Positions 14,841 through 61,595 of a stretch of 64,000 bases of DNA are shown here, one piece after another. The notes beneath the pieces are model-generated. The model was not told the DNA's origin, searched no databases, and was given only the letters and a program-made list of their open reading frames with translations. Position numbers and translations under genes: made by a program. The DNA comes from a bacterium (lineage in GTDB: Bacteria > Bacteroidota > Ignavibacteria > Kapaibacteriales > UBA2268): NCBI GenBank assembly GCA_037127915.1, contig JBAXXL010000023.1:319-64318 (forward strand), given 5' to 3'. The number at the start of each line of letters is the position of its first letter. Positions within the stretch are counted from its first letter, which is position 1.

Positions 14841-14867
14841 TTTTCAAATTGTTTATATTTTTCTTAA

Positions 14868-28396: not shown

Positions 28397-28434
28397 TTTT
28401 AAATTTTGAATGTTGAGTTTTGAATGTAGGGGCA

Positions 28435-28465: not shown

Positions 28466-28519
28466 AGAATGAAGGGATTAGAAGATTATAGGATAGATTG
28501 TCATACCCGAGGGATCGGG

Positions 28520-32067: not shown

Positions 32068-32237
32068 ATCCTAAGCCTCTCAAAATAAAAATCCAGATAA
32101 TCAATCAATAAAATTTATCGAAATTACGATATTTTGAATAAATGACAAATTATTTATCAAAGAGAATGTAACAAAATCCCAAAATATGTGTTATTTTGTA
32201 TATAGTGTGTTTATAATAATTATACTTTGGTGAATAT

Positions 32238-36194: not shown

Positions 36195-36218
36195 TGAGTT
36201 TATAAAGAAAGAAGAAAG

Positions 36219-41507: not shown

Positions 41508-41534
41508 CCTTATCAATATCGAAAGGAATGAAAA

Positions 41535-42836
41535 ATGAAAAAGTTTATTATTGTGGTTACGCTTTTTGCATTAATTATTATGCTGGATGCATGCACAGAT
41601 AAGAACGTTGTGAAACCATTAGCAAAAGGCTCTGTTAACGGGGTTGTAGTGGATTATGTTACAGGTACACCGCTTGGAAATGTATTTATCTCCTCGGAAC
41701 CGGCTTTCACAACCAAAAAAACAGATAACACCGGTTCGTTTACATTGGATAATCTCGAACCTAATGAATATCAAATAATAGCAGAAAAATCCGATTACGA
41801 GGTGGCAAAAGTTTTAGTACATATAACTGAAGGGAAGACAACTAGTGTTAATATTCCTATGATGAAGAAAAATTTGCAGTATGCGAGATTAAGCGGTACA
41901 ATATTAGGAAGTATCGATACATTACCGCTGAAAGATGTTGAGTTAACTATTAATCCTGAAATCGATGCTTTAAAGGATCTTAAAACCGATGCCGATGGAA
42001 AATTCGATTTGTCATTGCCGCCTGGAGTTTATTCTATTACGTTTATCAAAAAAGATTATTTAACATTGGTTAAGACATTTTCATTCAATCCGTTTCAAAC
42101 TATCTCCAAAGATTTCATTATGGAATTCACTGAAGAATATGTAAATCCGACCAACGTAGTAGATCATTTGGTATATTATAGCTTTGATGAGACCGACAAT
42201 TATTTACAAGATTTTTCCGGTAACAATTTCAACGGAGTTAAATCGGGGACTATTACAACTGAAACCGGTAAATTTGGCAATTGCATCAGGACAACAGGTA
42301 CAACTGATGCCTCAGGCGGCTGGATTAGTATTCCTATGATCCTTAATGAAACAACATTCAGCATAAACTTTTGGGTAAAAGAAATTAGTTTAGCTTATTC
42401 AGGGGGGCAATCATATTTCCAAATCGGCTTGCAAAATACAGGAACTTGTTTTATTGGTAGGTCGGTTCCATGGAGTATATCAGGAGGCGGAACTGATTTG
42501 TTTTATCAATTTGCGGTTGGCGGTAACAATACTCAAACTACTAAACAACCCTTGTATGTTAACGATAATTCCTATACCCCTGCAAATTGGAATATGTTTA
42601 CTTTGGTTTATAAGACGGGGACTATGACAGCTTATATTAATGGCCAAAATGTAGGTTCCCAACAACAAAATTTTGAAATAGGTACAAGCAATAAAATAGG
42701 TATAGGTATCCAATGGTGGTCGTCTAATGCGTCAACAAGACTAAGTGCTTATTATGATGAGTTTAGAATTTTGAATGTTGGTCTTACTGCTCAACAAGTA
42801 TCACTATTGTATCAAAATAATATTTATTCCAGATAA
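41535..42836 (+). CDS. CarbopepD_reg-LamG lipoprotein, tandem paralog 2
   Basis: 433 aa. Lipobox IMLDACTD. ~45-50% identity to paralogs 3 and 4. LamG_3 ending YYDEFRILNVGLTAQQVSLLY. Confidence 0.6.
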   Translation: MKKFIIVVTLFALIIMLDACTDKNVVKPLAKGSVNGVVVDYVTGTPLGNVFISSEPAFTTKKTDNTGSFTLDNLEPNEYQIIAEKSDYEVAKVLVHITEGKTTSVNIPMMKKNLQYARLSGTILGSIDTLPLKDVELTINPEIDALKDLKTDADGKFDLSLPPGVYSITFIKKDYLTLVKTFSFNPFQTISKDFIMEFTEEYVNPTNVVDHLVYYSFDETDNYLQDFSGNNFNGVKSGTITTETGKFGNCIRTTGTTDASGGWISIPMILNETTFSINFWVKEISLAYSGGQSYFQIGLQNTGTCFIGRSVPWSISGGGTDLFYQFAVGGNNTQTTKQPLYVNDNSYTPANWNMFTLVYKTGTMTAYINGQNVGSQQQNFEIGTSNKIGIGIQWWSSNASTRLSAYYDEFRILNVGLTAQQVSLLYQNNIYSR

Positions 42837-42866
42837 ATTAAATTATCGAAAATTGAAGGTAAAAAA

Positions 42867-44171
42867 ATGAAAAGAACAATTTTGATTTTAGGGCTGATTT
42901 GTTTATTTATCATTTCTGCATGTAATGAAAATAATCCTGTTAGCCCAATCCAGAAAGGCTTTATCAGTGGTCAAGTAACTGATTATACTACCGGCCAGCC
43001 TATAGCTAACGTATTGGTAACAACTTGTCCTTCTTCTCGAACCGCGCTGACAGATAATAATGGTAGATTCATTTTAGAAAATATTACTACTGGTGAATAT
43101 AGATTAATTGCGGAAAAAAACGAATTTTCGCCGTCATCTTCCAAAGTGAGCGTTTTATCAAACGATACTACCGATATTGCTGTACCTATGAAATTATCGT
43201 TGAATAAATACGGTTTATTGTATGGTTTATTAACCGACGAGAAGAGTTCACCCCTTGATAGTGTTGAAGTGATTATTAGTGATGGAGCAGAAACAATAGC
43301 TGATACGATTACCGATAGTAAAGGATTTTATAGCATAGCTCTTCCATTCGGCAAATATTATGTGACTTTAAGTAAATCAAATTACCAACCTGTGGATAAG
43401 GATGTTGAAGTTTTAAAAAATCAAGCGATTAATTTGAATGTTGTGTTAATCAAGACTGAAATAGAGATTCCTATCCCAAGTAAATCAGAATTATATGTTT
43501 ACTATAGTTTTAACGTTGATCCAGGAACGACTAATGTAACAGACAATTCAGCAAATGGTTTTAATGGTACGTTGATGAACAAAGACTGTGTATATGAAAC
43601 CGGCAAGTTTGGCAATTGCATAAGATTGATAGGTAAACCCGGTATCACCGGTTGTTGGATTAAACTTCCATGTGCAATGAACCTGCCGGAGTTTACTGTT
43701 AACATGTGGGTTAAAGAGATAAGCTCTAATTGGGGGTCAGGACAAGCATATTTCCAAGCAGGGAATAATTCCAATTCTGTGTGTTTGATCGCCCGTAACG
43801 CTTTTTTCAGTATAGTATCTAACACTTCTGAACTTGATTACAATTTTGCCGTGGGAGCAATAAATACTAGCGGTGCTTCTAATACTCCAATTACTTTAGC
43901 TGACAATGGGTATGATCCTTATGCTTGGAATATGTTTACATTGGTATATAAGAAAGAGGGTTTAATGGACGCATATATTAATGCTAAATTAGTTGGATCA
44001 AAAAATCAGGCGTTCAACATAAACCCAAGTGGTAATATAGGAATAAATGTGCAATGGTGGTCTGGTGATGGTGCTACCAGATTGACAGCTTGCTACGATG
44101 AGTTTAGAATTGATAAATCAGCTTTGTCCACAACAAAAATAGAAAGACTTTATAAAGAAAATAAATATTAA
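42867..44171 (+). CDS. CarbopepD_reg-LamG lipoprotein, tandem paralog 3
   Basis: 434 aa. Lipobox IISACNEN. Shared core motifs ETGKFGNCIR...WVKEIS...GQAYFQAGNN...AWNMFTLVYK...CYDEFRI. Confidence 0.6.
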   Translation: MKRTILILGLICLFIISACNENNPVSPIQKGFISGQVTDYTTGQPIANVLVTTCPSSRTALTDNNGRFILENITTGEYRLIAEKNEFSPSSSKVSVLSNDTTDIAVPMKLSLNKYGLLYGLLTDEKSSPLDSVEVIISDGAETIADTITDSKGFYSIALPFGKYYVTLSKSNYQPVDKDVEVLKNQAINLNVVLIKTEIEIPIPSKSELYVYYSFNVDPGTTNVTDNSANGFNGTLMNKDCVYETGKFGNCIRLIGKPGITGCWIKLPCAMNLPEFTVNMWVKEISSNWGSGQAYFQAGNNSNSVCLIARNAFFSIVSNTSELDYNFAVGAINTSGASNTPITLADNGYDPYAWNMFTLVYKKEGLMDAYINAKLVGSKNQAFNINPSGNIGINVQWWSGDGATRLTACYDEFRIDKSALSTTKIERLYKENKY

Positions 44172-44320
44172 CTTTTTTTAGAGAAAAAATTAAATTTAAG
44201 GAATAATTGACGGAGATTTCTTATATTTGCATATTGGTTTTAAAATAAAGTATTTTTTCAAAAAATAATAGGTTTTTTTCAGAAAAAAAAATGTGTTTTT
44301 AGAATATATTAGGTGTCTTT

Positions 44321-45625
44321 ATGTTAAAAAAATTATTAATCCTCGTGGTACTTCTATCGCCGATTCTTTTCGGCTGTAAGGAAGATACCCCTGTAACTCC
44401 GAGTACAAACGGAAATATTGCCGGCGTTGTACTTGATTTCGATTCTGCTTTGCCATTGGAAAATGTATTTGTTTCAACAATTCCAATCACAACAACAGTA
44501 AAAACAGATGCTCAAGGAAGGTTTACCTTAGAAAATCTGGAAGCTCAAGTTTACAAATTAGTTGTCGAAAAATCAGGGTATGATTCTTACACTACCTCGA
44601 TTTCAGTGCTCGCGACAAAAACTACTCAAATCACTGTTCCGCTCAAATCAAAAACTTCCGGTTACGGAACAATTAGCGGATTTGTTACCAACAAAAAAGA
44701 TTTGAAACCAATCAGCAATGTGATTATTTCAATTTCGCCTGCACCGGATGGATGGACCGATATTAGTACCGACGATACAGGTTATTACACAATTCAATTA
44801 CCGGCAGGTGTTTACACCATGCATTTAACTAAAACTGATTTTAAATCTATAAGCAAAGTATTTACTTTAACCAAAAGCGAATCCGCAAATTTAGATATCG
44901 TTATGGAAGAAGGAACTACTGATCCGCCTATTGATGAAAATTTATATGTTTATTACAGTTTTGATACTCAATTAGGCGGTTCTGCTGTAAAAGATAATTC
45001 CGGCAATGGTTATAACGCCCAAATCGTAAATAATTGTCAATATGAAACAGGTAAGTTTGGAAGTGCAATTAAAACAATAGAAGGTTCAGGTTATTCAGGT
45101 GGATGGATTAAAATGGATTTCCCCTTCAATTTATCTGAATTCACTATAAGTTTTTGGGTTAAAGAAGTATCCGCAGAGTTTGGTGGAGGTCAAGCATACT
45201 TCCAAGCAGGGAACAATGATGATGGTGTATGCCTTATGGGAAGGAATGGAGCTTGGTCTAATATGAATTCAATAGGCGATGGGATAAATTATCATTTTGC
45301 TGTAGGAGCCAACAGTAACGATTATAATGGCTCTAAAGTTCCTTTAGCAGTTAATGACGTAAACTACAATCCTGAATCATGGAATATGTTAACCATGACT
45401 TATAAAAATGGGAAATTTTATGCATATATAAATGGAAATTTAGTTGGTTCAAAGAACCAACCTTTTTCCGTTGTTCAATCTGATTTGATGGGCCTTGGAA
45501 TACAATGGTGGGAAAGTAGTGCTTCAACAAGGCTTACTGCCTATTATGATGAGTTTAGAATATATACAGTATCGTTAACTCAATCCCAAATCACGAATTT
45601 ATACGAAACGAATTCCTTGAATTAA
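44321..45625 (+). CDS. CarbopepD_reg-LamG lipoprotein, tandem paralog 4
   Basis: 434 aa. Lipobox ILFGCKED. Same core motifs. Terminator hairpin at 45654-45685. Confidence 0.6.
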   Translation: MLKKLLILVVLLSPILFGCKEDTPVTPSTNGNIAGVVLDFDSALPLENVFVSTIPITTTVKTDAQGRFTLENLEAQVYKLVVEKSGYDSYTTSISVLATKTTQITVPLKSKTSGYGTISGFVTNKKDLKPISNVIISISPAPDGWTDISTDDTGYYTIQLPAGVYTMHLTKTDFKSISKVFTLTKSESANLDIVMEEGTTDPPIDENLYVYYSFDTQLGGSAVKDNSGNGYNAQIVNNCQYETGKFGSAIKTIEGSGYSGGWIKMDFPFNLSEFTISFWVKEVSAEFGGGQAYFQAGNNDDGVCLMGRNGAWSNMNSIGDGINYHFAVGANSNDYNGSKVPLAVNDVNYNPESWNMLTMTYKNGKFYAYINGNLVGSKNQPFSVVQSDLMGLGIQWWESSASTRLTAYYDEFRIYTVSLTQSQITNLYETNSLN

Positions 45626-48946: not shown

Positions 48947-49744
48947 ATGAAAATAAATGACGATAAATATTATAAGCAATACCAAGATTTGATCGGTGTA
49001 AATATTGATAATCTTATCAAGTCATTTGATTTTAACGAAGCAGAGACCGATTTAGGATATAAAACTCAGGCAAGTGCTGTATTTTCTTCGAATATCGAAG
49101 GAAATACCATTGATTTGAATTCATTTATGAATTATAAATTATCGCAGGAAAAATTTAAATCCCACAAAGAAATTCGGGAAATCGAAGATTTAGTTTCCGC
49201 TTATGAATTTGCTCAATCCAACCAACTTAATGAAAAGACATTTTTGCATTGTCATAAAATTTTCTCAAAAAATTTAGTTATCGAAAGCAAGCAAGGAAAG
49301 TATCGCACTGAGAAAGTCGGAGTTTTTGGTCAATCAGGACTTGTTTATTTAGCAGTGGAACCGGAATTTGTTCAAGAAGAAATGAAAGAGTTTTTCAAAG
49401 GTATAGCCGATTTACTAAAAATGAATTTATCAAATTCCGAAGTATTTTATTATGCCTCTCTGATTCATCTTAAATTTGTTCATATACATCCTTTTATGGA
49501 TGGGAATGGACGCGCCGCCCGATTAATTGAAAAATGGTTCATCTCTGAAAAGTTGGGTGAAAGATTTTGGAAACTTTTATCCGAAAAATATTATAAAGAG
49601 CATCAGGCGAAATATTATAATAATATCAATTTAGGTGTGAATTATTATGAGTTGAATTACGACAGATGCCTTCCCTTTTTGATGATGCTACCGCAAGCGA
49701 TGGATAATAGTTCGAAAAATACCAATAACTACTTAACAACCTAA
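48947..49744 (+). CDS. fic: Fic-family protein (class II, cis inhibitory motif)
   Basis: 265 aa. Fic active-site motif HPFMDGNGRAARL. N-terminal [ST]xxxE[GN] inhibitory motif SSNIEGN. Confidence 0.85.
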   Translation: MKINDDKYYKQYQDLIGVNIDNLIKSFDFNEAETDLGYKTQASAVFSSNIEGNTIDLNSFMNYKLSQEKFKSHKEIREIEDLVSAYEFAQSNQLNEKTFLHCHKIFSKNLVIESKQGKYRTEKVGVFGQSGLVYLAVEPEFVQEEMKEFFKGIADLLKMNLSNSEVFYYASLIHLKFVHIHPFMDGNGRAARLIEKWFISEKLGERFWKLLSEKYYKEHQAKYYNNINLGVNYYELNYDRCLPFLMMLPQAMDNSSKNTNNYLTT

Positions 49745-49899
49745 TGCTTAAGCGTAAGGTTGAAAAACATTATTCCTATTTAAATCTCAAATTATTCTTA
49801 TTAATAAAAAAAATCTTTGTGTAACGAAATTACAAAAAATGTGTATATAGACTAATACTTTATGAAAAAATAATTTTTTTATATTTTATTGGAGTATAT

Positions 49900-51294
49900 A
49901 TGAGATATTTATGGTCAATTTTGTTATTATTATGTCTTTCTCTGATAACTGTTGTAGCAAAAGAGAATGATAATCGGAATAAAACAAATCCCTTATTACA
50001 AGGGAATAAGGAATTACTGGACCAAGTCGTACTTTATTCAGCTAACGGTGATTCAACCAAAAGCATTTACGAATATGATGCTAATGGAAATTTAGCAACC
50101 ACTTTAACAAAAAAATGGCAAACAGAAAAGTGGGAAGATTCAAAAAAATATTCTTATACTTACAATCAAGACAATAAGCAGATATTACAGCTTGATGAAG
50201 AATTTAAAAATGATGCTTGGCAAAGTACACAACGTTCTACTATGACTTACGACGCTTATGGATTTTTATCACAAAATTTGATCGAAGTTTTCAAAAATGA
50301 TCAATGGATTAATCAAAGCCTCACCTCTTATGCAAACACTGAAAATGGAGATGTATTGTCTTACAGATTTGAAGTATGGTTGAATGATAAATGGGAACTC
50401 GCGCGGGCTCAAGATTATACTTATAATGAAAATGGTAAAAAGTCCAATTATACTGATGAGAGCTGGGAAGCGGGTCATTTGACAAGAAAGATGCGTACAA
50501 ATTACGGTTATGATGTAAAGGGAAATCAAATTACTGAAAGTCTTGAGATGTACGAAAATGAAGTGTGGACTGAAGTTTACCGTGCTAATTATACTTATGA
50601 TTCTGAAGGGAATAACACTCTGTATGTTTCCGAAAACCAGCAGGATGGCGAGTGGTCTTTTACAGAACGTAGAACTAGCGAATACGATTCCAAAGGTAAT
50701 ATGTTGTCGGAAAGAGATGAATGGTTTGATGGAACAAAATGGTTTTATTTTGCAAAATATACGTATACATTCAGTGAAAATAATCATGAACTTACATTTT
50801 TACAACAAAGTTATGACACAATTAATTTAGTTTGGGAAGATCATTATAGGAGAACTACTACCGAGAATGAGAAAGGCAATATTTCTTCTATTGTTTCTGA
50901 AGCTTGGGTAAGCGATAAATGGGTAAAAGACAATAATATGCTAGTTATTTTTGATAAAACGGGCAAAATGTTTACATATATTGGATGTAAAATTGAAGTT
51001 TCATATAAAGAGGTAAATGATGTTAAAGAAGAACCTGAACATCAAATAATACTTAGTTGTTCGCCTAATCCGGCAGGTGATTTTATAACGATAAGCGCGG
51101 GAGCAATCAACCCCATGCTTAAGCATGGGGTTGATGCCGCTACTGAAATCATTATCTATAATACTCTCGGCGAAAAAGTATTATCTGTAGGAACAGGTCG
51201 TGACCTGTCCGCACCGATTAATATTTCCGATTTACCAAAAGGTATGTATTTTATAAAGGTTGGAACTGAAACAACGAAATTTGTAAAGATGTAA
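49900..51294 (+). CDS. T9SS cargo protein with tandem YD/RHS-like repeats
   Basis: 464 aa. Signal peptide. ~25-aa periodic W.....Y.YD..GN units (YEYDANGN, YTYNENGK, YTYDSEGN, SEYDSKGN). Sorting domain SPNPAGDFITISAGAINPMLKHGVD...LSVGTGRDLSAPINISDLPKGMYFI. Confidence 0.65.
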   Translation: MRYLWSILLLLCLSLITVVAKENDNRNKTNPLLQGNKELLDQVVLYSANGDSTKSIYEYDANGNLATTLTKKWQTEKWEDSKKYSYTYNQDNKQILQLDEEFKNDAWQSTQRSTMTYDAYGFLSQNLIEVFKNDQWINQSLTSYANTENGDVLSYRFEVWLNDKWELARAQDYTYNENGKKSNYTDESWEAGHLTRKMRTNYGYDVKGNQITESLEMYENEVWTEVYRANYTYDSEGNNTLYVSENQQDGEWSFTERRTSEYDSKGNMLSERDEWFDGTKWFYFAKYTYTFSENNHELTFLQQSYDTINLVWEDHYRRTTTENEKGNISSIVSEAWVSDKWVKDNNMLVIFDKTGKMFTYIGCKIEVSYKEVNDVKEEPEHQIILSCSPNPAGDFITISAGAINPMLKHGVDAATEIIIYNTLGEKVLSVGTGRDLSAPINISDLPKGMYFIKVGTETTKFVKM

Positions 51295-51334
51295 ATGAGT
51301 TAGTAAAGATTTTTTTTTATAAAGTTAAAAGAAG

Positions 51335-51375
51335 AAAACGTCCGACACGTGAAACAGGTGCCGGACGTTTTGATT
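51335..51375 (+). terminator. Hairpin terminator (AAAACGTCCG ... CGGACGTTTT) after 49900..51294
   Basis: 10-bp stem with 17-nt loop, followed by TTTTGATT. Confidence 0.5.
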
Positions 51376-51387
51376 ATACATTCTGAA

Positions 51388-51480
51388 CGCAGTGAAGAAT
51401 CCATCTTCTTGAATAGCCACGACTTTTTTTCCTCGGGTCAAGAGTTCCTCTTGACGCGGCGTAATTCGTAATTGATTGAT
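51388..51480. repeat. Family-A repeat copy (X module plus CGTAATTCGTAATTGATTGAT)
   Basis: CATTCTGAACGCAGTGAAGAATCCATCTTC and GCGTAATTCGTAATTGATTGATAATG. Direct repeat of 57716-57890, flanking the three-gene operon. Confidence 0.6.
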
Positions 51481-51486
51481 AATGTA

Positions 51487-54171
51487 TTAATTTTCCAGTT
51501 TAATTATTCTCAAAAAACTTGGTGTTTTGTTTTCAATTAGTTTATTTTTTATACGATGAAAACTTTGTGTTACCACATCGAGATTTCTATATTTTTCTAC
51601 AGAGCGGACCGAATAAATCTTTCCCGTTATCTCAACGATTTCAACATCCATTCCCGGAATTTGGTTTAGTCTTTCTTTATATTTGCTAGCATTTTCGAGA
51701 TTTTGATAAACACCAAAGCTTACAACAAACTGGTTGCACTCTTTAATAAGCGGCATTGCAAACTCTTTTATAGCTAGTGGAAAACGTTTTATCGCTGTTT
51801 GAATGGAATCGGTAAACACATTTGCTTCCGCTTCGGATTGGAAACTATTGGAGAATAATCTATGCGCTCCTGTACCCGATCCATCGTCAGCAATATTCAA
51901 ATTGTTTTCGAAATATCCAAAAGAATAATCGATGAGGATTTTTTGAATGTCTTCCGCCTCTTTTCTATTATCAAATTTTAGTTCTACCGTATAGTAACAA
52001 TTCTCTTTAACCGGTTGCTGTTTTTCGAAATCGAAATCCCGCGGCACAGCATCAAGTGAAATCTCAATCCTCCGCATCAAAGCATCGGTTTGAACGATAG
52101 AATCTTTTTGTCTATAGATACCTTTGCCGTTTATTTCGTATTTTACACGTTTGCTATCATAAGCCGATCTATACACTTGGCTGGTTGACATAAGATGATT
52201 GTGGATAGTTTCATAAGTATAGTATGCCCGCAACATAGAGAGCATCACATTACCATTCTGGCCGCCGGTAACTCCATCGATATTAAATTTGACCATTTTG
52301 TTATTAGTATCAATTAATGAAGCTATTTGGAAAGCTTGTCTATGAGAAATTTTTAAATCATTTACTATTAAATCCTTACCTGTATATACCCCATCCAAGC
52401 CGTGCGCATCGGTATAGCCATTAATAGTAATTCTTAGTACCAGCGAGTCGCCGCAAGTTATTTCTTTCAATTGTAATATAGGCAGTTTGCTGTTAATATC
52501 GTCATAAATTTTAGATTCGAAATACGCGTCAATGTGTCTTGGAACGGTATCGTACTTCCAATCATTATCCTTATAATTTGCTCCTTTCAATTGTCCTGTA
52601 CGCTTCTCATTTTGGAAAATATCCCAATTCTCTTTAGTCAGCGGTCGCCAATATCCGGTAATGAAGTAAGGTACTCCGCTCTGGTCGGAGAAAATAATTG
52701 TACCTAAATCGCTACCCACTATATCCACAACTAAATCTTGTATAATTAATTTGTCATAATCCGGTGTTTCAAATTTAACTGGATCGCATTTATATATCGG
52801 GTTATCAACTTTCAAAATATAAGTTGAATTTTTCTTTAGATTTGAAAATTCTTCGCCGTTTTTCACTTTACCGACTATATTACCTGCTTCATCTTCGATT
52901 ATCACGGTAACCAATCCAAGAAAATCGTTACTTGTAGTATCTTTATCAATAGATGTACAACGATCTCTAAGTTGAATATTAATTAACACACTAATTGTTA
53001 GCGATGTACCAGGATTTATGTCCTCATTCTCAACACCACAAGCATATATATCATATTTCCCTTGATTGTCTTTTCTGGAGAAGTAGAGGCTTGTACCATT
53101 GTCACTCAAAAAAGGAGATATTTCGTCGTTACTTGTATTGATAATTCCCGGAAAAGTTAATCGCAATTTGCTCTTTGATATTTTGGCATTGTTTATATTT
53201 CTTACGTTTTTCCAAGTATCATTAAGATCGCTTTCTGCAATATAGATATCGAAACCGCCTTTACCATTTGGCCTGTTAGATGAAAAGTAGAAATTACCAT
53301 CGTTGCCTATATGAGGGAATGTTTCGTCATATTGGGTGTTTATCGAATTCAGGGGCAGAGGGGTATCCCAATTACCGGAAACTTTTTTAGAATACCAAAT
53401 ATCCAATCCGCCTTTACCGCCGGGGCTGTTTGAAACGAAATATAGAACCTTTCCGTTAGGAGATAGCATAGGCTGTGATTCCCAGTAATCGTCAGTGTTA
53501 ACAGCATCTATAGGTGTAGGTTTAGTGTAACCGTTTGTCGTTTTTTTAAACTCGTATAAATCCCAGTTTTTACTTGTTCCTACGGTATCGAATTGTCTAT
53601 CAGCCGCAATTATGAAGTTAGAGCCGTCTAATGATGTAATCGGTCCCCGGATAAGGTTATCGTTTTGCGATCCTGTTACTAAAATTTTCGGTTTGCCCCA
53701 CCCTGTCCATGGATCCAATTTACCACCGGTATTGACTCTCGTTGAATAAAATACATCACCAAAGTTCTTCTCATCTGTAATTAAAGAATAATATTTTGAA
53801 TGTTTTTTCGGCTTTTTAATAACAGCTTTGGGAGAATTACCAACCAACCAGCCAAACGGAAAATAATTCCAAAATCCGTATCGTTGCGGTTTATCATATA
53901 TTCTGGACGAAGTAAACCAAAGGATTTCACTATTTCCATTACGTGTTATTACAGGTGCATACTCGTCGGTTATATACTTGTCATAATACAATGCGTGTTT
54001 CTTGGAACTAAAAATCGATGTACTCCCGATTGTATCTGATGTTACGTTAATAATAGCGGGAAGTATCTTGCAATCTAAATCTTGCGCCTTCAAACCCAAA
54101 CAGTTAGAAGACAATCCTATAGCACAAAAAACTAAAACTTTTTTTATATTCATACTGTTAAATAAATTCAT
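51487..54171 (-). CDS. Envelope protein: TolB-like WD40/PD40 beta-propeller repeats, OmpA-like domain and C-terminal SPOR-like domain
   Basis: 894 aa. Signal peptide. PD40-like repeats (PMLSPNGKVLYFVSNSPGGKGGLDIWYS; PHIGNDGNFYFSSNRPNGKGGFDIYIA; PFLSDNGTSLYFSRKDNQGKYDIYA). GYTDAHG OmpA-like segment. SPOR-like tail. Confidence 0.55.
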   Translation of the reverse strand: MNLFNSMNIKKVLVFCAIGLSSNCLGLKAQDLDCKILPAIINVTSDTIGSTSIFSSKKHALYYDKYITDEYAPVITRNGNSEILWFTSSRIYDKPQRYGFWNYFPFGWLVGNSPKAVIKKPKKHSKYYSLITDEKNFGDVFYSTRVNTGGKLDPWTGWGKPKILVTGSQNDNLIRGPITSLDGSNFIIAADRQFDTVGTSKNWDLYEFKKTTNGYTKPTPIDAVNTDDYWESQPMLSPNGKVLYFVSNSPGGKGGLDIWYSKKVSGNWDTPLPLNSINTQYDETFPHIGNDGNFYFSSNRPNGKGGFDIYIAESDLNDTWKNVRNINNAKISKSKLRLTFPGIINTSNDEISPFLSDNGTSLYFSRKDNQGKYDIYACGVENEDINPGTSLTISVLINIQLRDRCTSIDKDTTSNDFLGLVTVIIEDEAGNIVGKVKNGEEFSNLKKNSTYILKVDNPIYKCDPVKFETPDYDKLIIQDLVVDIVGSDLGTIIFSDQSGVPYFITGYWRPLTKENWDIFQNEKRTGQLKGANYKDNDWKYDTVPRHIDAYFESKIYDDINSKLPILQLKEITCGDSLVLRITINGYTDAHGLDGVYTGKDLIVNDLKISHRQAFQIASLIDTNNKMVKFNIDGVTGGQNGNVMLSMLRAYYTYETIHNHLMSTSQVYRSAYDSKRVKYEINGKGIYRQKDSIVQTDALMRRIEISLDAVPRDFDFEKQQPVKENCYYTVELKFDNRKEAEDIQKILIDYSFGYFENNLNIADDGSGTGAHRLFSNSFQSEAEANVFTDSIQTAIKRFPLAIKEFAMPLIKECNQFVVSFGVYQNLENASKYKERLNQIPGMDVEIVEITGKIYSVRSVEKYRNLDVVTQSFHRIKNKLIENKTPSFLRIIKLEN

Positions 54172-54200
54172 TGCTCAACTCCTAATGATATAGTAATTAT

Positions 54201-56393
54201 CTAAAACAAAATTGGATAAATAGCTCTGAAATCAATACCTGAAAGATGGAAAATATTGGTGTCCACTTCGCGGCCCAAATATCTGCCTTCTATGTGTAAA
54301 ATTCCAATTTCGCATGGAATACCTGTATTCGAATCATCTTTATTACTCCATAAAACATATACAGCTTTAAGAAGTAATTTTTCATTAGGGTCTGCACTGA
54401 CAGGATTCCCGCCAACAGATGTGAAGCCGTTAGTAAATGTAAAAGTGCCATTTTGATATTCATTTCTTATTTGATTTACAACGTCTTTAGTGTTTTTAAT
54501 CTCATTGACTGTCATATATTTCCAAAACTTAACATTTTTCATTATACCGCTAGGTGCTAATTTGAGAATAGGCTCCCTATCGGTTGTCACCGTCGCTGAA
54601 TTATCGTAAACATCAATATAAAAATCACCTTGATCGGGAGGATAAGGGGCGAGTTTACCATCTATACCGCGAATACTGCGAACCAAATCCGATGTGTTGC
54701 CTTCGCTTAGGCCATTGAACCAAAACACTTGTTGTTCTTGAATGTCTACCACATCCGAAAGCTGGTTATAACCAGATATTTTTTGTAGTTCCGAAGTCTG
54801 TGGAGCTGTTGTTACTATAGCCACTACTTTAATTGTTTGAGCGGCGCATCCCGGAATATTTGAAGATAATGTAAGATAAATAGTAAACGTGCTATCTTCT
54901 GTTTTTTGGTTATTACCTCTTTTGCTTAGAACTCTATTTTGGAATTCTTCGATTGTCGGCGCGGTAAAGGTAACACCTAAGCTAAATGAATAACCAGACT
55001 TTAATGAGAATCCCGTTGAATTGGTAAAGGTAAAATACTTCAAGGATAATTGATTTTGTTCTTTATCCTCGACCGAGATTCTGATATCAACAGGATCGAA
55101 ACACGCGTCAATCGGGTAAGAAATAGTAAAACTCTCAACTTTTTTACTTGGTTCATTGGTACAAGTGTTTGCTTTTGAAAATAGGAATCGACTGCATACG
55201 CCGGTAACAAATTGATAATTTCTTTCTGTATTGCTAAATTCCAGATCAACGCCGGTTATCATTAGTTTCGGACATACATCCACGCAAGCTTTAGCTTTCA
55301 AAATTAAAAGTGTTGTACAAGTTTTATCACCGGTTTTGTAGGTAACTAAAAAAGTATCAGGTTTCATTTGGGTATCTTTTGCAGTAAACTTCAAATCAAC
55401 TTTTAATGCTTTGTTATAATTAACAGTTGCATTATATTTAGTTATTTGCCACTCCCCTATTTTGCTCAGTGATTCTATACTAATGATTTCATCCACGCAG
55501 TTTACCTTAGTATTGATAAACACTTCTTCGTTCTTATATTCTTTTGGAGTACCAAGCGTATTTCTATCATCTTCCTTATTAATAATTGTCGGTTCAAGAT
55601 CAAGACATTCGCATTTCGCTTCTACTATTTCAGCCGCTAAATTGACGGTTAATACAGCAGATTTGTCTGTACATTCAGCTTGAATCAGCAGATTTTTTGC
55701 ATATTTATTAATATTATTGATTGCATTTAACTGTACTGTAATTGTTATAGATTGACCGGTTACAAGAGTTACCGAAGAACCCGCCGCAGGGCTGACCAAT
55801 TCAAATGGCGCTATACTTGCGGCAGACGGCATTTTTAATGTAATAGGTTCGGCACCATTATTTACGAAAAGCGTTGCGCTTTTGTAATAATATTTGTCGA
55901 TTTCCGAACGGCTTATCTGAGTTGAGCCGTTTTCATCTAATATAGTTAATTTGTATGTATCATCTTTCAAATCATCACATTTCAGCGGTGGTGGCGGCTC
56001 TGGATTGAAGTACAACACCACGGTTGTGTCTTTGCAACAAGGGTAAATTGGTTCAACTTGAGTCTGCCCTTTATAACTACCTATTATTTGATACTGCTTG
56101 CCCATCGTCGGGGCTTCGAACACTAATTCCGCAAAGCCTGAATTGTCGGTAATATCTTGTGCTACATAAGTGTTGGCTAACGGGTCGAACGCCTTTATTT
56201 GTGCATTAACAGCCGGTACATTAGTTGCTTTACCGGAAGTATCGCGTAAGAAAGCATAAGCCGAGATTTTTCTTTGCGAACTATCGTTTGGCATAATTGT
56301 ATTTTGAACACATCCGCCAGCGACCATTAAAAGCAATAGCGAAACTATCAAATACCGGCTTTTAATTAAATTTATATGAATTCTTGTTTGCAT
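54201..56393 (-). CDS. Large Cys-rich lipoprotein, function unknown
   Basis: 730 aa. Lipobox MVAGGCVQN. Numerous paired Cys (PCCKD, CEC, CVDVCP). No recognisable enzymatic motif. Confidence 0.5.
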   Translation of the reverse strand: MQTRIHINLIKSRYLIVSLLLLMVAGGCVQNTIMPNDSSQRKISAYAFLRDTSGKATNVPAVNAQIKAFDPLANTYVAQDITDNSGFAELVFEAPTMGKQYQIIGSYKGQTQVEPIYPCCKDTTVVLYFNPEPPPPLKCDDLKDDTYKLTILDENGSTQISRSEIDKYYYKSATLFVNNGAEPITLKMPSAASIAPFELVSPAAGSSVTLVTGQSITITVQLNAINNINKYAKNLLIQAECTDKSAVLTVNLAAEIVEAKCECLDLEPTIINKEDDRNTLGTPKEYKNEEVFINTKVNCVDEIISIESLSKIGEWQITKYNATVNYNKALKVDLKFTAKDTQMKPDTFLVTYKTGDKTCTTLLILKAKACVDVCPKLMITGVDLEFSNTERNYQFVTGVCSRFLFSKANTCTNEPSKKVESFTISYPIDACFDPVDIRISVEDKEQNQLSLKYFTFTNSTGFSLKSGYSFSLGVTFTAPTIEEFQNRVLSKRGNNQKTEDSTFTIYLTLSSNIPGCAAQTIKVVAIVTTAPQTSELQKISGYNQLSDVVDIQEQQVFWFNGLSEGNTSDLVRSIRGIDGKLAPYPPDQGDFYIDVYDNSATVTTDREPILKLAPSGIMKNVKFWKYMTVNEIKNTKDVVNQIRNEYQNGTFTFTNGFTSVGGNPVSADPNEKLLLKAVYVLWSNKDDSNTGIPCEIGILHIEGRYLGREVDTNIFHLSGIDFRAIYPILF

Positions 56394-56427
56394 TTATTTA
56401 TTCCTTATAGTAATCTTTTTATTTAAT

Positions 56428-57444
56428 TTAAAAACTAAGACCTAATCTTAAAAAAACGGCGTTTGACAATCGGTATGGATTTAAATCCTGATTTTGCACA
56501 CATTCCGGCGGAGCAATCAACTCCGGTAGGGGCGTGTATATCCATCTGTATCCTAAATCGACACTTAAATCTATATGTTTTGTGATTGCAAATTCTTTAC
56601 CCAAACCCAGGTCCGCAAATGCACCTAACGGTTTGATATTTTTATCTTTATCCTTTTTTATGGTAATCAATCCGCCAAAGTCGGTGAAGAAAAACCAGGT
56701 GTTGCAACTTCTCATCGCACTACAACAATCCACAAAGGCATTTACATTGCTTGTGTAGCGCAAACGAATGGCGGCAGGTACAAAATACGAACCGTCCATG
56801 GGCCACAAACCGGTTAAAATACCAATTTTTGTTGACGAAGGAGTTTTGTCAAGCCAATAAAACAATTTGTCGAGAAATTTAAATCCCGTTATAGCCGATA
56901 TTTCTCCGCCTACAAGAATTTTGGAACCGCCATAGCCAAATCCAAAATCATCTTGAATATAAGTTGTGTCGGGATAGACGGTTTGATCAATCGCGTTCCA
57001 TTTTAAAGGATTTCTTCTAATACCGCCCATAGCTTTGATTTCCCATATTAATCCGCTTCTATCGCGAGAGCAGGAAAAGCAATCGGTTTGTCCGCGAATA
57101 GGTTCAATTACACTTGGTGTATTAATCCCATTTGCCATTGTAGTTATAACTTTAGTATTTATAGAATCAATTCTATAAATATTCATTTTAACATCGTAGA
57201 AAGCAAGAATTGGTTTATGACAGCTATCATAAACGACAGGTATGTAATTTGTCATAATTGAACTTAAAAATTCACCCTTATTACCTTGATTTTCCACCTT
57301 TTTTACAAATTCTATATTATATAAAGTATTTGATTTTACCTTTATATAATTTTTGTCCGGATATTCCTCTATTACCGTCTTACAAGAAGAAAGCACCAAT
57401 AATAGTGAAGTGAAACAAATAGAGACTTTTATGAAATTTACCAT
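56428..57444 (-). CDS. Lipoprotein / putative outer-membrane beta-barrel protein
   Basis: Start adjusted to MVNFIKVSICFTSLLLVLSSCKT (lipobox). C-terminal ...LRLGLSF ends in Phe, typical of outer-membrane beta-barrels. First gene of a three-gene minus-strand operon. Confidence 0.45.
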   Translation of the reverse strand: MVNFIKVSICFTSLLLVLSSCKTVIEEYPDKNYIKVKSNTLYNIEFVKKVENQGNKGEFLSSIMTNYIPVVYDSCHKPILAFYDVKMNIYRIDSINTKVITTMANGINTPSVIEPIRGQTDCFSCSRDRSGLIWEIKAMGGIRRNPLKWNAIDQTVYPDTTYIQDDFGFGYGGSKILVGGEISAITGFKFLDKLFYWLDKTPSSTKIGILTGLWPMDGSYFVPAAIRLRYTSNVNAFVDCCSAMRSCNTWFFFTDFGGLITIKKDKDKNIKPLGAFADLGLGKEFAITKHIDLSVDLGYRWIYTPLPELIAPPECVQNQDLNPYRLSNAVFLRLGLSF

Positions 57445-57707
57445 ACTTTTTTTGGGATAAAACATATTTTGAAAAATTATGATTCTCATATAATACACCT
57501 TTTTGTGATAAAAGAAACTCTGTGAGATGGGTTTTGTAAATAAATAATTGGCTCTGCACGATTTTTTAATTACTTACAAATCATCTAATATTTTCAACCC
57601 AAAAATAATTATATTTTTTGGAATAACAATTAGATTTTTAGTTATTATCTAAAATATTTTCGCTATTTATGACAAAGAGCCTAAAAAAATGGTAATTGTC
57701 AATAAAT

Positions 57708-57890
57708 GGGATCCGTCATTCTGAACGAAGTGAAGAATCCATCTTCAATTAATTAAAAATTGAAAGTTGAAAGTTGAAAATAAGAAGAAGAATTCACCGC
57801 AAAGACGCGGAGACGCGAAGAAATTGTTTTATCTGTAGGGACAGGTCGCGACCTGTCCACCTTTGCAACTCGTAATTCGTAATTGATTGA
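57708..57890. repeat. Family-A repeat, most complete copy (W-X-Y-Z, GTAG hairpin GGACAGGTCGCGACCTGTCC, CGTAATTCGTAATTGATTGAT)
   Basis: Perfect 20-nt palindrome at 57839-57858 with 5' flank GAAGAAATTGTTTTATCTGTAGG, shared with sorting-domain coding sequence at 51170-51210 and 14510-14550. Confidence 0.65.
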
Positions 57891-58017
57891 TGATTTTCTT
57901 CAATCCTGAAAGGATGGAAATATTGTAGAAAATGGAAATATACGGTGGCACTAACCCTGGAAAGGTGGTATAATAAAAATGACCTCTTTAGAGGTCATAT
58001 ATTTGTAGATATAGAAC

Positions 58018-58278
58018 TTATTTATAAGCATCTTTTCTATGTTTTACAGCAATAATATCTAAAATCATCTCAATATCCGATATTGAATACAATACTCTAT
58101 AATCGCCCACGCGTATTCTCCAGATATTATTCGTTCCTTGAAGCTTTTTGCATCCGTTAGGTCTTGGATTATGAATTAAAAGTTCAATTCTTTTCCAAAG
58201 CCTTTCGACAATTTGATTATCAAGAGATTCTATTTCACTAACAGCCGATTTTGAAAAGTTTATATTATAGCTTTTCAT
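58018..58278 (-). CDS. relE: Type II toxin, RelE/ParE family
   Basis: 86 aa. C-terminal WRIRVGDYRVLYSISDIEMILDIIAVKHRKDAYK matches the RelE/ParE core. Confidence 0.75.
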   Translation of the reverse strand: MKSYNINFSKSAVSEIESLDNQIVERLWKRIELLIHNPRPNGCKKLQGTNNIWRIRVGDYRVLYSISDIEMILDIIAVKHRKDAYK

Positions 58279-58462
58279 CCAATTTGCCTTGTTTTATCAA
58301 TTTATCTTTGACATCCTTAAGGCTTGTACGGGGCTCATTTTCACGCGATTTAGCAACTAATAAATCGTAGAAATCTTCCCAAATGCCCTTGTACTTTTTC
58401 AAATCAATAAGCACAGCTGTTTTATCGCCTTGTTCTGTTACAATATATTGAATGCCGTCCAT
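58265..58462 (-). CDS. Antitoxin (Phd/RelB-like) of the RelE module
   Basis: Start adjusted to MDGIQYIV. 14-nt overlap with the toxin gene. Small acidic protein upstream of relE. Confidence 0.55.
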   Translation of the reverse strand: MDGIQYIVTEQGDKTAVLIDLKKYKGIWEDFYDLLVAKSRENEPRTSLKDVKDKLIKQGKLDEKL

Positions 58463-58790
58463 TATATACCTTTTAAGCAAATTTATTATATGATTTTATA
58501 TATTTACAACGAATAAAAATAACGAATATTTGAAGATAATATAACGGCTAATTATAAATTATAAATGAGAAGAAGAAAAAACAATAAAAAGACCTAGGTT
58601 GAGGTCGAATGTTTGTAGAAAAATGCACCCCGTTTTTGAAAAACGACCCCAGCGTGGTCGTGTCTTTTTCTTTCTTGATTATTCCCGATTTTTCAAAGGA
58701 GTTTAGGGGCTTTCTCTTCTAGGGCGTATGCAATACGCCCCTACATTAACAATTTACAATTAACCATTATTGCTTCATACCCCACACCCC

Positions 58791-58819
58791 AAAAAAAAAG
58801 GCTGACAAATTGCCAGCCC
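58791..58819 (-). terminator. Rho-independent terminator of 58849..60189 (GGGCTGGCAATTTGTCAGCC plus T9 on minus strand)
   Basis: Plus-strand A9 followed by GGCTGACAAATTGCCAGCC. Confidence 0.65.
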
Positions 58820-58848
58820 TTATGGAATATTTGATTATTTTTATGTAT

Positions 58849-60189
58849 TTACATAATAACTATTTTACCACCGTAAAGCGTTTTGCCGGCTGTTTTAAAT
58901 TTGTACATATAGACACCGGAACGTAAGTCCGCAACATATACAGGTTCGCCTTTCGTGACTGTTTCATTAATTAATTCTTGACCGGTCAAATCGTAAATAA
59001 TTATATCAAGTGTAAGTTCACTACCGACCCAATTGAAAGTTATGTATTCTGTGCTCGGATTTGGAGAAACCTGAGCGGAAGATAATTTGTTGTCAAAAAC
59101 AGACGAACCTTCAAAGTTTGAATAGTAATATATAGATTTTGAACTGTCGGTGAGTGTTCCTGAATCATAGGCATAAGACATATTCGAAACAACCTGATGG
59201 CTGAAGAAATCCTTCATATCAGCGTCACTTGGTGTAAAAGGCAAAACTAAGTCATTCGACGAATAATCATTGTTGTATGAATAAACATCCTTATCTGTTG
59301 TTACTAATTCGTCGCTACCTGGGTTTTTTATATAATCTGTTTCCATATACCTATTGTTGAATCCATCATATTTATAGGCTATTTCGTTGCTGAAAATCAG
59401 CAATTCATTTCCATTATCATCAAATTCTACAGTCCAGGCAGTTATCTTATCAAGATTATTATTTCGATATGCATATTTATCTACTCCTGTTTTTAACCAA
59501 TCTTCATTCCAAGAGTATCTGGTACATTCGGTTAGTTTTTGATTATTATCATAAGTATATTCATCTTTTCCGATTAAACCAATTTCACTACTCATTGTAT
59601 AACCGTAATTCAATGTAGTAATCAATAGTTTATTGGAGTTGTATGTGTATTCATATCTGCCGCTGACCGCCCAAGAACTTGTAGCATCATCCCAATATAA
59701 CTCCGCTTCCGTTGCAAGTGTGCCATTATCATTATATGTATAATCAGTTTTAGTTATGTTAATACCATTAGTTATTTTTTGAATACTTGAAATCATATTA
59801 CCCTTTTGGTCATACTCATAGTCGGTACTGAAATTATAAACCAAATTCGAAGTTCCGGTATTATAAATTTTCATTGTCCCTTTTGTTACCTGACCTATTT
59901 GGTTATAGGAAAAAGTCATTTTTGCGTCAACTTTTATTCCTTCTTCGAATGGCTCACCATAAGAAACTGCACTATCCAATTTTTGTTTGGTCGTGTTTAG
60001 ATCGTTTATAGTGTTTAGCTTATCTTGAGTATTAGCCGCTAAATGAACTCTCCCTGCGAATTGATTTGGTAAAAACGCATTCACTAAGCTATGGTTTGAT
60101 AACTTATCGCCCGGTGTTGCGAACGTTAATGTACTAATGGTTATAAACGCCATTAATAATGTTGCTAATTTTTTCATAATTTTCCTCAT
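58849..60189 (-). CDS. T9SS cargo protein with YD/RHS-like repeats
   Basis: 446 aa. Signal peptide. Repeats (DYTYNDNGT, YEYTYNSNK, DEYTYDNNQK, EFDDNGNE). Sorting domain VSPNPSTEYITFNW...GVYMYKFKTAGK. Confidence 0.6.
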   Translation of the reverse strand: MRKIMKKLATLLMAFITISTLTFATPGDKLSNHSLVNAFLPNQFAGRVHLAANTQDKLNTINDLNTTKQKLDSAVSYGEPFEEGIKVDAKMTFSYNQIGQVTKGTMKIYNTGTSNLVYNFSTDYEYDQKGNMISSIQKITNGINITKTDYTYNDNGTLATEAELYWDDATSSWAVSGRYEYTYNSNKLLITTLNYGYTMSSEIGLIGKDEYTYDNNQKLTECTRYSWNEDWLKTGVDKYAYRNNNLDKITAWTVEFDDNGNELLIFSNEIAYKYDGFNNRYMETDYIKNPGSDELVTTDKDVYSYNNDYSSNDLVLPFTPSDADMKDFFSHQVVSNMSYAYDSGTLTDSSKSIYYYSNFEGSSVFDNKLSSAQVSPNPSTEYITFNWVGSELTLDIIIYDLTGQELINETVTKGEPVYVADLRSGVYMYKFKTAGKTLYGGKIVIM

Positions 60190-60304
60190 GAATAAGATTA
60201 TTGATACGTTTTATAATTTTTAAATCATAACATAATTACGAGGGAAATTTCTAATTGTTTCAATTTCTTCATACCCTATGTCCTAAACCCTAACCCCAAT
60301 ACCC

Positions 60305-60334
60305 TAAAAAAAGGGTTCGGCAAGCCGAACCCTT
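60305..60334 (-). terminator. Rho-independent terminator of the M24 peptidase gene (AAGGGTTCGGC..GCCGAACCCTT plus T7 on minus strand)
   Basis: Perfect 11-nt arms. The A-run on the plus strand precedes the hairpin. Confidence 0.7.
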
Positions 60335-60368
60335 TAATAGAATTTGTATTTATTTTAATACATATACT

Positions 60369-61595
60369 TTATCCTTCAATCGTAGGTAGTTCTTTCGGTG
60401 GATGAGTCAATCTAACTCCGCCTTGACTGGTTACGATGAATGGATCTTGGATACGCATACCGAATTTTTCGGTATAAACACCGGGAGCAACCATGATAAC
60501 GCATTTTTCGGGTATCAGGTCTATTTCATTTGCAAAATTAATAAATGGGTGTTCTTTGGAACTCAAACCAATGCCATAACCCAATCCGTGTTTAAAATAA
60601 TCGTTGCAACCTTTCGATTTCATAAACTCTCGTACAATAGCATCATAATGCAAACCTGACATCCCAGGTAATACTGCTTTCATTGCAACTTCTTGAGCTT
60701 CATAAAGAATGTCATACATTTCTTTTTGCTGTTTCGTAGCTTTGCCTATTGCTATAGTTCTCGAAATCTCAGCTTGGAAACCTTTGTATTGCGTCGAAAA
60801 GTTAATCATCAGCAATTCATTCTTTTTTAATTTTTTATCAGTTGGTTTACCATTTATTATATTACCACGTTCGCCTGAAGTAACCAACACTTGTGTTGGA
60901 ATATGCTCAGAACCTAAACGGCGGCTGATATAACCAATCTCGTTTGCCAATTCGTCTTCCGACATCTTAACTTTGATTATTTTGAGTACTTCGCTGTAAG
61001 TTTCCTCGGCTATTTCACACGCTTTTTTGATAAATTCTAATTCTTCTACACCTTTCGGCTGAGTGAACGGTTCGAAGAAATAAGGCGCAGGTTTAAATTT
61101 TACCGGGCGAATTTTATTACGAATATCAATTGCAAGGGAATATGGTATCTTATCTGCTTCAAAACCAAGAGTGACAAACTCGTTGAATATCTTAGTCTTT
61201 CGGCAGTAATCCCAAATATTACTTGTTATGTGGATTTTCAATCCGGGCAAATCGTAAAGTTCTTCTTGAATTTGCCTTTCATAGCGATAATCCGTAAAGA
61301 AATGGATATTATCACCGTGAACTATAACTTCTGCAAATGAACCGGAGAAGTTGGTTAAGTATCTAATGTTTGGCAAATATGAAATATATGCGGCTTGTAC
61401 TTTATATTCATCCATTGCGTATTTGAGTTGATTTAATCTCAAATCAACAATACTTGGATATTTATGTGCCGCACTTCCTTTACCGGAAGATGGATTCTTT
61501 TTTATCTCTTTTTCAACCGAAGGTGGTTTTACAGTCGGTTTCGGAGTATTTTTTATACTTTTTTTTGTTTCTTTTTTAGCCATAATAACAAACAC
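60369..61595 (-). CDS. pepP: M24 family Xaa-Pro aminopeptidase (creatinase/prolidase N-domain plus M24 catalytic domain) with a Lys/Pro-rich N-terminal tail
   Basis: 408 aa. M24 metal-ligand context (HGLGYGIGLSSKEHP; VIMVAPGVY). Basic N-terminal 45 aa (KKETKKSIKNTPKPTVKPP). Confidence 0.7.
   Translation of the reverse strand: MFVIMAKKETKKSIKNTPKPTVKPPSVEKEIKKNPSSGKGSAAHKYPSIVDLRLNQLKYAMDEYKVQAAYISYLPNIRYLTNFSGSFAEVIVHGDNIHFFTDYRYERQIQEELYDLPGLKIHITSNIWDYCRKTKIFNEFVTLGFEADKIPYSLAIDIRNKIRPVKFKPAPYFFEPFTQPKGVEELEFIKKACEIAEETYSEVLKIIKVKMSEDELANEIGYISRRLGSEHIPTQVLVTSGERGNIINGKPTDKKLKKNELLMINFSTQYKGFQAEISRTIAIGKATKQQKEMYDILYEAQEVAMKAVLPGMSGLHYDAIVREFMKSKGCNDYFKHGLGYGIGLSSKEHPFINFANEIDLIPEKCVIMVAPGVYTEKFGMRIQDPFIVTSQGGVRLTHPPKELPTIEG

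Follow-up and report, generated by a model that had tools for sequence, protein, structure and literature searches.

PorE (PG1058), a type IX secretion system (T9SS) component in Porphyromonas gingivalis, is built from the domains TPR, WD40, CRD plus OmpA_C (PMC12773672), and a complex of PorE with PorP and PG1035 has been described (PMC9143113). CHU_0125, a Pal-like OmpA lipoprotein of Cytophaga hutchinsonii, is a Pal homologue and putative peptidoglycan-associated lipoprotein that is important for outer-membrane function (PMC5891637). Our study examined a stretch of 64 000 nucleotides (nt) from a bacterium of the order Kapaibacteriales (contig JBAXXL010000023.1 of assembly GCA_037127915.1), hereafter called the window, to which all coordinates refer unless another locus (L001 etc.) is named. 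Three adjacent genes on its minus strand, here called A, B and C, encode lipoproteins that probably make up one peptidoglycan-anchored outer-membrane complex, encoded on the chromosome. By comparison with the described systems, the operon is best read as analogous to the PorP–PorE–PG1035 module and not as a member of those families. The three genes are as follows.

56428..57444, minus strand: gene A, 338 amino acids (aa) counted from the ATG, lipoprotein
54201..56393, minus strand: gene B, 730 aa, lipoprotein
51487..54171, minus strand: gene C, 894 aa, lipoprotein

A preliminary description of this DNA, made from the sequence alone, had reported three co-directional genes separated by short gaps, and the open reading frames were found as it stated, with gaps of 34 nt and 29 nt. 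The frame of gene A extends upstream to a GTG at 57498, with another possible start at 57489, and its product is 353 aa long in the NCBI annotation.

Conservation of the operon

A word-indexed search of 5.8 billion proteins returned one or two matches per protein, which for B were its own record and one relative at 81 %, and scans of genome contigs with an alignment query and with a single-protein query found no relative. An exhaustive profile hidden Markov model search of 1.84 billion cluster representatives (E≤1e-3) gave a B family of 44 clusters, nearly all of 700–760 aa. On these searches, A-B-C appears to be confined to a small set of uncultured lineages.

Eight loci were compared, namely the window, L001/L002, L003, L004, L005/L006, L019, L020 and L021 (metagenomic). 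An A-like gene (327–360 aa) lies directly upstream of the B-like gene in every locus fetched, and a C-like gene (860–912 aa, with PD40) lies directly downstream of B wherever the contig continues. The A-B-C order and the short gaps recur across these 8 independent loci, whose GC content ranges from 31 to 53 % and among which BLASTP identities are 27–88 % for A, 22–81 % for B and 24–86 % for C. Lipoboxes were seen in nearly all orthologues of the three proteins. The genes that flank A-B-C differ in every locus: psd-dnaN-recF-DciA in L003, FeoAB/NMO and GH57 in L005, an amidohydrolase and a histidine kinase in L019, and LolA, a PorZ-like gene and a 23S_rRNA_IVP-family protein in L001. A gene order that is fixed in diverged loci with different neighbours indicates that A-B-C is a tightly linked functional module, and argues against a chance juxtaposition.

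In L001, the closest relative, the operon lies approximately 1 kb downstream of the LolA and PorZ-like (T9SS) genes, with the 23S_rRNA_IVP-family gene between them (region 4809-8665). This proximity may be coincidental; the theme of these neighbours fits lipoprotein sorting and T9SS.

Domain architecture of protein C

From profile matches and motifs, protein C is read as a succession of lipid anchor, propeller, beta-sandwich, OmpA-like region and SPOR, all encoded on the minus strand.

Residues ~60-380 (nt 53032-53994), minus strand: PD40 beta-propeller (Pfam PD40)
Residues ~385-485, minus strand: putative beta-sandwich, a variable beta-rich linker
Residues ~490-705 (nt 52057-52704), minus strand: OmpA-like region, recognized by motifs, with an insertion of ~45 aa
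Residues ~720-894 (nt 51490-52014), minus strand: one or two SPOR domains (Pfam SPOR on the C-terminal piece)

The lipid anchor is indicated by Cys24, which is invariant and preceded by a canonical lipobox in the orthologues (ILAS-C, FPG-C, LTN-C). The propeller was identified by Pfam PD40 (E 4e-17, 3 repeats), and the best NCBIfam matches for all five orthologues examined were PorE and CHU_0125 (E 1e-10 to 1e-27), the latter being the top match in three of them and second best otherwise. The window protein scored 89 bits against PorE (NF052230, cutoff 600), with residues 126-323 aligned to positions 186-374 of the model only, and its orthologues scored 39–97 bits; against CHU_0125 (cutoff 620) the window protein reached 83 bits and the orthologues 57–91. 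The TolB model TIGR02800 had no match in the window protein at E≤0.1 and matched only the L019 orthologue (E 0.0018, 17 bits compared to a cutoff of 343). The preliminary description had called the propeller TolB-like; the PD40 assignment holds, whereas PorE/CHU_0125-like is a better label than TolB. No TPR domain was found in C at E≤0.1, and only ~35–60 residues precede the propeller in the orthologues. Residues ~385-485 are poorly conserved and have no Pfam match. A search of PDB sequences with C returned designed propellers only and was uninformative.

An alignment of four orthologues revealed a conserved block in the OmpA-like region, reading SDxSG[VI]PYFITGYWxPxT ... IT[IV]xG[YF]TD ... 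GQxGNxxLSMLRAxYT ... GxGI ... RRIxI. The elements G[YF]TD, GN..LSMLRA and RRIxI correspond to the strand, helix and strand by which OmpA_C/Pal domains are recognized. They are kept in three of the four aligned lineages, with the motifs split by the insertion of ~45 residues, and in the L019 orthologue, the fifth checked, GFTD was the only OmpA-type motif found. SPOR (PF05036) scored 17.1 bits on the whole window protein, below the gathering score of 21, and passed marginally, at 23.0 bits in 2 stretches, when the C-terminal 178 aa were searched alone; the L005 orthologue scored 25.6 bits. Of the domains given to C in the preliminary description, PD40 is therefore well supported and SPOR marginally so, whereas the OmpA-like region is recognizable at the level of motifs and is sub-threshold as a domain.

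Predicted structure of protein B

Protein B has the lipobox VAGG-C and 16 cysteines, of which 5 are invariant and 6 more are at least 90 % conserved among 31 homologues, in agreement with its earlier reading as a large Cys-rich lipoprotein. The conserved cysteines would fit disulfides in an oxidising extracytoplasmic location.

The only Pfam match of B from the window was a sub-threshold hit to the HYDIN/VesB immunoglobulin (Ig)-like domain. Over the 31 family members, HYDIN_VesB Ig was found in 13, Cep192_D3/D4 in 8–9, and bMG3, ASH and Big_1 in a few. AlphaFold2 modelling of B with the 31-sequence alignment reached a mean predicted local distance difference test score of 87, compared to an unusable 29 with 2 sequences. 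The model comprises a signal/anchor helix, beta-sandwiches at residues ~38-129, 145-257, 269-371 and 376-528, and an alpha/beta domain at 537-730, and thus shows B as a predicted string of four or five tandem Ig-like (HYDIN/ASH-type) beta-sandwiches followed by a C-terminal alpha/beta domain. The top Foldseek matches in the PDB were the ASH-domain strings of hydin/CFAP, the S-layer protein SbsB, cadherins and the Ig domains of PrgB, with E down to 1e-15, template modelling scores of 0.15–0.26 and ~10 % identity; such low scores are expected for beads-on-string proteins. A profile search of PDB sequences matched the first domain of B to the S-layer stalk of SlaB (8qox_B, E 1.8e-5).

The family scan, the model and the Foldseek matches supersede the earlier statement that B has no recognisable motif. 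The remote-homology search and structure prediction that had been proposed for the 730-aa protein point to an Ig-like rod and to no known enzyme family. An enzyme function was considered for B and is rejected on fold grounds, as neither an enzyme fold nor a catalytic family appeared in the AlphaFold2 model or the Foldseek search. B resembles the tandem Ig-like/ASH proteins (HYDIN, VesB, choice-of-anchor D) and the S-layer stalks (SbsB, SlaB) in being a string of beta-sandwiches. However, this similarity is at the fold and domain level only, and B differs from them in its own conserved cysteine pattern and in a C-terminal domain without a match.

Protein A as a putative outer-membrane barrel

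The lipobox and C-terminal Phe previously noted in the product of gene A were both seen (LLVLSS-C and ...LRLGLSF). An alignment of 8 sequences consists of the lipobox, an N-terminal region of ~110 residues in which a CxxC-like pair is conserved, and a C-terminal part of ~210 residues whose end reads [LV]R[LFV]G[LIV][ST][FL], the last residue being F or L in 8/8 orthologues. In the same alignment, alternation of column hydrophobicity picked out ~8 amphipathic segments that rank above the 95th percentile obtained with shuffles, with alternating segments at residues 129-143, 175-183, 205-214, 219-234, 254-267, 284-302 and 329-338. A and its orthologues had no Pfam, NCBIfam or PDB sequence match, save a weak match of the L021 orthologue to OMP_b-brl (E 0.018). 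A small (~8-strand) outer-membrane barrel with a lipidated N-terminal domain is a reasonable, if putative, reading of A. From these searches, the A and B families both appear to be without a curated family assignment.

In L005 an extra gene for a 217-aa OMP_b-brl barrel, not homologous to A, lies right after gene C (12789-13442).

A probable peptidoglycan-anchored complex and its alternatives

The preliminary description had proposed an uncharacterised cell-envelope complex, and the conserved A-B-C module, the three lipoproteins and the anchor architecture of C support this. In such a complex, C would be the lipid-tethered anchor that ties the outer membrane to the wall. Its PorE/CHU_0125-type propeller would offer a docking surface for proteins and its beta-sandwich would act as a spacer, and the OmpA-like module and SPOR would bind the stem peptide and the glycan strands of peptidoglycan. 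A would be the membrane-embedded partner, if its predicted barrel topology is correct, and B would form a disulfide-stabilised, rigid Ig rod of ~700 residues, with a conserved domain at its C-terminus, held by A and C, placed either at the cell surface, as an adhesin or spacer, or in the periplasm. We advance only tentatively the more specific picture of a lineage-restricted envelope machine, in which C is a SPOR/OmpA-anchored strut that holds A, a lipidated 8-strand barrel, which displays or positions the Ig rod B; this machine would be either a T9SS-independent analogue of PorP–PorE or a new tether between the outer membrane and peptidoglycan.

Several results weigh against this interpretation. 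The scores of C against PorE and CHU_0125 are ~7-fold below their cutoffs and come from the propeller only. Pfam OmpA (PF00691) scored 14.8 bits on a fragment of C (E 0.036, cutoff 27.2), rose only to 15.6 bits when the insertion was excised, and had no match in the L003 and L005 orthologues. An hhalign comparison of the OmpA-like region with Escherichia coli Pal/OmpA, for which approximate sequences were used, aligned 17 columns, covering the GyTD strand only. The SPOR part of the L003 orthologue is diverged or missing and gave no match. For A, the PorP_SprF models had no match in the protein or its orthologues at E≤0.1-1, and hhalign of the A family with two beta-barrels from these data was negative. 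For B, a T9SS C-terminal domain (PF18962 / TIGR04183 / TIGR04131) was found neither in the window protein nor in the 31 family members.

The comparison with known systems shows likeness and difference in each case. C is, like PorE, a lipoprotein with a PD40/WD40 propeller, followed by a putative beta-sandwich and, at motif level, an OmpA-like region, and its order is that of PorE minus the TPR and plus SPOR; it differs in its score (89 bits compared to 600) and in an OmpA-like region that is sub-threshold and carries the ~45-aa insertion. The operon, like PorP–PorE–PG1035, pairs a putative barrel, a lipoprotein that would bind peptidoglycan and a third large protein, although A is not detectably PorP/SprF and the T9SS C-terminal domain is missing from B, itself a lipoprotein. 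The propeller of C matches CHU_0125 (57–91 bits compared to 620), whereas C has a different C-terminal half, with SPOR, and a dedicated three-gene operon. With TolB and Pal, C has in common PD40 repeats and, at motif level, an OmpA-type peptidoglycan-binding signature; however, the window protein has neither a TolB family match nor a TolB N-terminal domain, no tolQRA genes are its neighbours, and its propeller is joined to the OmpA-like part within a single lipoprotein. As the proteins could not be assigned to PorE, PorP, TolB or T9SS cargo, our claim is that the operon works like these systems, not that it is one of them.

A closer relationship to T9SS would have C as a PorE paralogue and A as a PorP-like barrel, the two serving to anchor or secrete B. 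T9SS cargo genes are present in the host lineages, with many Por_Secre_tail genes in the window; in L003 and in L019 such genes adjoin the operon, near which L001 has a PorZ-like gene; the propeller of C is closest to PorE; and the three-part logic matches that of PorE–PorP–PG1035 (PMC9143113). Nevertheless, we consider this relationship improbable, given the PorE score of C, the missing TPR domain, the absence of a PorP_SprF match to A at E≤0.1, the lipoprotein signal of B, which has neither a type A nor a type B C-terminal domain, and the great rarity of the family (44 clusters) compared to the widespread T9SS. Less probable again, and a weaker alternative than a PorP–PorE-like platform, is a Tol-Pal-like or division tether, in which A and B would serve as structural partners of C, itself a fusion of TolB/Pal type that SPOR would direct to the septum. 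C does join a PD40 propeller, OmpA-like motifs and SPOR, and SPOR domains bind denuded septal glycan. Furthermore, CHU_0125, the second-best family match of C, is a Pal homologue (PMC5891637). Against this role, TIGR02800 was absent from the window protein and matched one orthologue only (E 0.0018), tolQRA genes were adjacent in no locus examined, SPOR is not conserved in L003, and a family so rare would hardly be expected to have a core function in division.

If the peptidoglycan-anchored complex formed by A, B and C is real, it would be a second, independently built case of the T9SS-anchor arrangement, in which a barrel is combined with a lipoprotein that binds peptidoglycan and with an attached protein. 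The list of envelope components of the Fibrobacteres–Chlorobi–Bacteroidetes (FCB) superphylum would gain two unannotated families, A and B, and C would be the first PorE-like protein with SPOR domains, linking an outer-membrane platform to recognition of glycan strands. A-B-C well deserves further structural and biochemical study.

Transcription of the operon

57445..57713, minus strand: 5' leader of the operon with its probable promoter, kept in the relative L001 (blastn, 80.8 %)
51327..51371, no strand assigned: hairpin with U-runs on both strands, likely a bidirectional terminator of the A-B-C operon and the convergent gene 49900..51294

The hairpin at 51327-51371 has a folding energy of −21.5 kcal/mol (z −6.6), and RNA folding of 200 shuffles gave none as good. 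Terminator-like sites on the minus strand are absent from within the A-B-C block and present both before and after it, so A-B-C is likely to be transcribed as a single unit. The upstream toxin–antitoxin operon has a terminator-like hairpin of its own at 57979-57998, just after the ParE toxin gene, which argues that the A-B-C operon has its own promoter.

Flanking repeats and relocation of the block

The preliminary description had placed the block between direct copies of one repeat family. Modules common to both flanks are real: the 21-mer CGTAATTCGTAATTGATTGAT (M4) is exact at 51460-51480 and 57871-57891, 1–5 nt from where it had been placed before, with zero copies expected by chance, and a copy with one mismatch lies at 30365. 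A second common module, M1 (TCTGAACGMAGTGAAGAATCCATCTTC), occurs at 51382-51408 and 57720-57746, and in the opposite orientation at 11695-11721. The two flanks have the following composition.

57714..57894, no strand assigned: upstream mosaic repeat, with M1 57714-57757, M2 57747-57788, M5 57783-57822, M3 hairpin 57838-57858 and M4 57871-57891
51381..51483, no strand assigned: downstream mosaic repeat, with M1 51381-51408, an unrelated hairpin 51437-51456 and M4 51460-51483

The downstream mosaic sits in the 3' untranslated region, after the stop codon of C and before the terminator. Comparison of the flanks with the window by blastn found only M1 (30 nt) and M4 (21 nt) in common, with unrelated sequence between them; the flanks are mosaics, not two copies of one element, and this part of the earlier claim does not stand. 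Every module of the upstream flank is copied elsewhere (11687-11859, 14511-14550, 14728-14767, 28519-28595, 30329-30383, 51181-51210), and the intergenic sites of repeat modules in the window are 11684-11860, 14511-14767, 28451-28620 and 30227-30390. M1...M4 composites occur also at 28519-28595 and 30295-30385, and since one orientation is common to all four composites of the window, nothing is distinctive about the direct orientation of the pair that flanks the operon. Repeat modules were also seen in intergenic regions of relatives, at the unrelated sites L016 2568 and, following alr, L007 11196. Repetitive extragenic palindromic (REP) sequences and bacterial interspersed mosaic element (BIME)-like elements likewise consist of short modules, some hairpin-forming, in variable order and orientation at many intergenic regions, whereas the sequence family here is lineage-specific. 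From their distribution, the flanking repeats appear to belong to a genome-wide mosaic intergenic family that has no part in the function of the operon.

At 14530-14550 and 51190-51210, the palindromic module M3 (GGGACAGGTCGCGACCTGTCC) is part of the sequence that codes for two T9SS type-A C-terminal sorting domains and is translated as ...LSVGTGRDLS.... A further copy, at 57838-57858 in the upstream mosaic, reads EIVLSVGTGRDLSTFATRNS* in the same frame. The intergenic M3 looks like an orphan fragment of such a sorting domain, or like a hairpin element that invades the regions coding for these domains.

The distribution of the repeats bears on the earlier suggestion that the 6.3-kb block forms a cassette whose movement or acquisition came about through the repeats on its two sides. 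The homology of L001 with the window (8660-14914 = 57754-51487, 80.8 %) starts inside the upstream M1 and ends at the stop codon of C, 4 nt from M4, and both flanks of the block are non-homologous in L001. As this homology covers exactly the block and the flanks differ, the block was relocated in this lineage. The operon of L001 also has M1/M4-type modules on either side, and in relatives with alr or IMPDH at least 90 % identical (L007 and L014 from GCA_038206725.1, L011 and L016 from the same sample series as L001) the operon is not beside those genes. However, relatives separate the neighbouring blocks just as much: homology stops at 49718 for alr-Fic and at 60367 for pepQ-IMPDH, and neither end carries an M1/M4 module. 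The comparison of related genomes that had been proposed as a check therefore showed relocation of the block in L001, but of its neighbours too. In L007, L011, L014 and L016, alr-Fic and IMPDH-pepQ, which lie on the two sides of the operon in the window, are linked neither to each other nor to the operon, so that an empty site is not definable; compared to L011, rearrangement extends to further parts of the window. Breaks of the same kind in adjacent blocks indicate that operon-scale shuffling is general here.

Other evidence also argues against a cassette. The flanks match over 30 + 21 nt only, M1/M4 modules occupy at least 5 other intergenic sites of the window as well as the unrelated sites in L007 and L016, the four M1...M4 composites of the window all point one way, and the M1 copies flanking the operon in L001 are inverted relative to each other. 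No transposase, integrase or recombinase was found in or beside the block, searches of PHROGs (phage) and PADLOC (defence) gave no match, the GC content of the block (0.35-0.39) is close to the ~0.35 around it, and flanking repeats are absent from the orthologous operons of L003, L005 and L019. We therefore regard a cassette moved or gained through recombination at its flanking direct repeats as an unlikely explanation. The comparison points instead to a block relocated within a heavily shuffled, repeat-rich genome, with no sign of a mobile cassette bounded by repeats; the shuffling may have arisen by recombination between repeat modules dispersed in the genome. It would be wrong to take the flanking repeats, which are generic intergenic mosaics, for the boundaries of a cassette in this genome. 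Defence-system and prophage readings of the block were rejected on the negative PADLOC and PHROGs results.

Compared to L001, L007, L011, L014 and L016 (81–85 % nucleotide identity), synteny across 49744-60369 breaks at almost every operon boundary, and the region consists of four small blocks without conserved neighbours, which are a cargo gene, the A-B-C operon, a toxin–antitoxin pair and a cargo gene.

Neighbouring genes and other features of the window

The neighbours of the block are T9SS cargo genes, a ParE/antitoxin pair and a Fic gene. The RelE toxin–antitoxin pair reported earlier beside the block was recovered, with a ParE/RelE-superfamily toxin at 58018..58278 (PF05016, E 4e-12) and weak RelB/Phd-like antitoxin matches at 58265..58480. 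A Fic/DOC-family gene (48947-49744) lies directly after alr and is kept in the relative L011; with the ParE pair, it gives the region several toxin-type genes.

The T9SS cargo genes 49900..51294 and 58849..60189 were considered as an inverted duplication bounding the region, and this was rejected, as they are only distant paralogues (~30 % local identity). Elsewhere in the window, an inverted duplication of a T9SS cargo gene of ~1320 aa was observed (15101-19164 and 32160-36216, 72–80 % nucleotide identity), with a third, partial copy of its 3' end at 28102-28398. Furthermore, four tandem paralogues of 433–434 aa with CarboxypepD_reg and Laminin_G_3 domains lie at 40203-45625, upstream of an OmpA-family gene and alr, and the relative L011 has a single copy of this gene.

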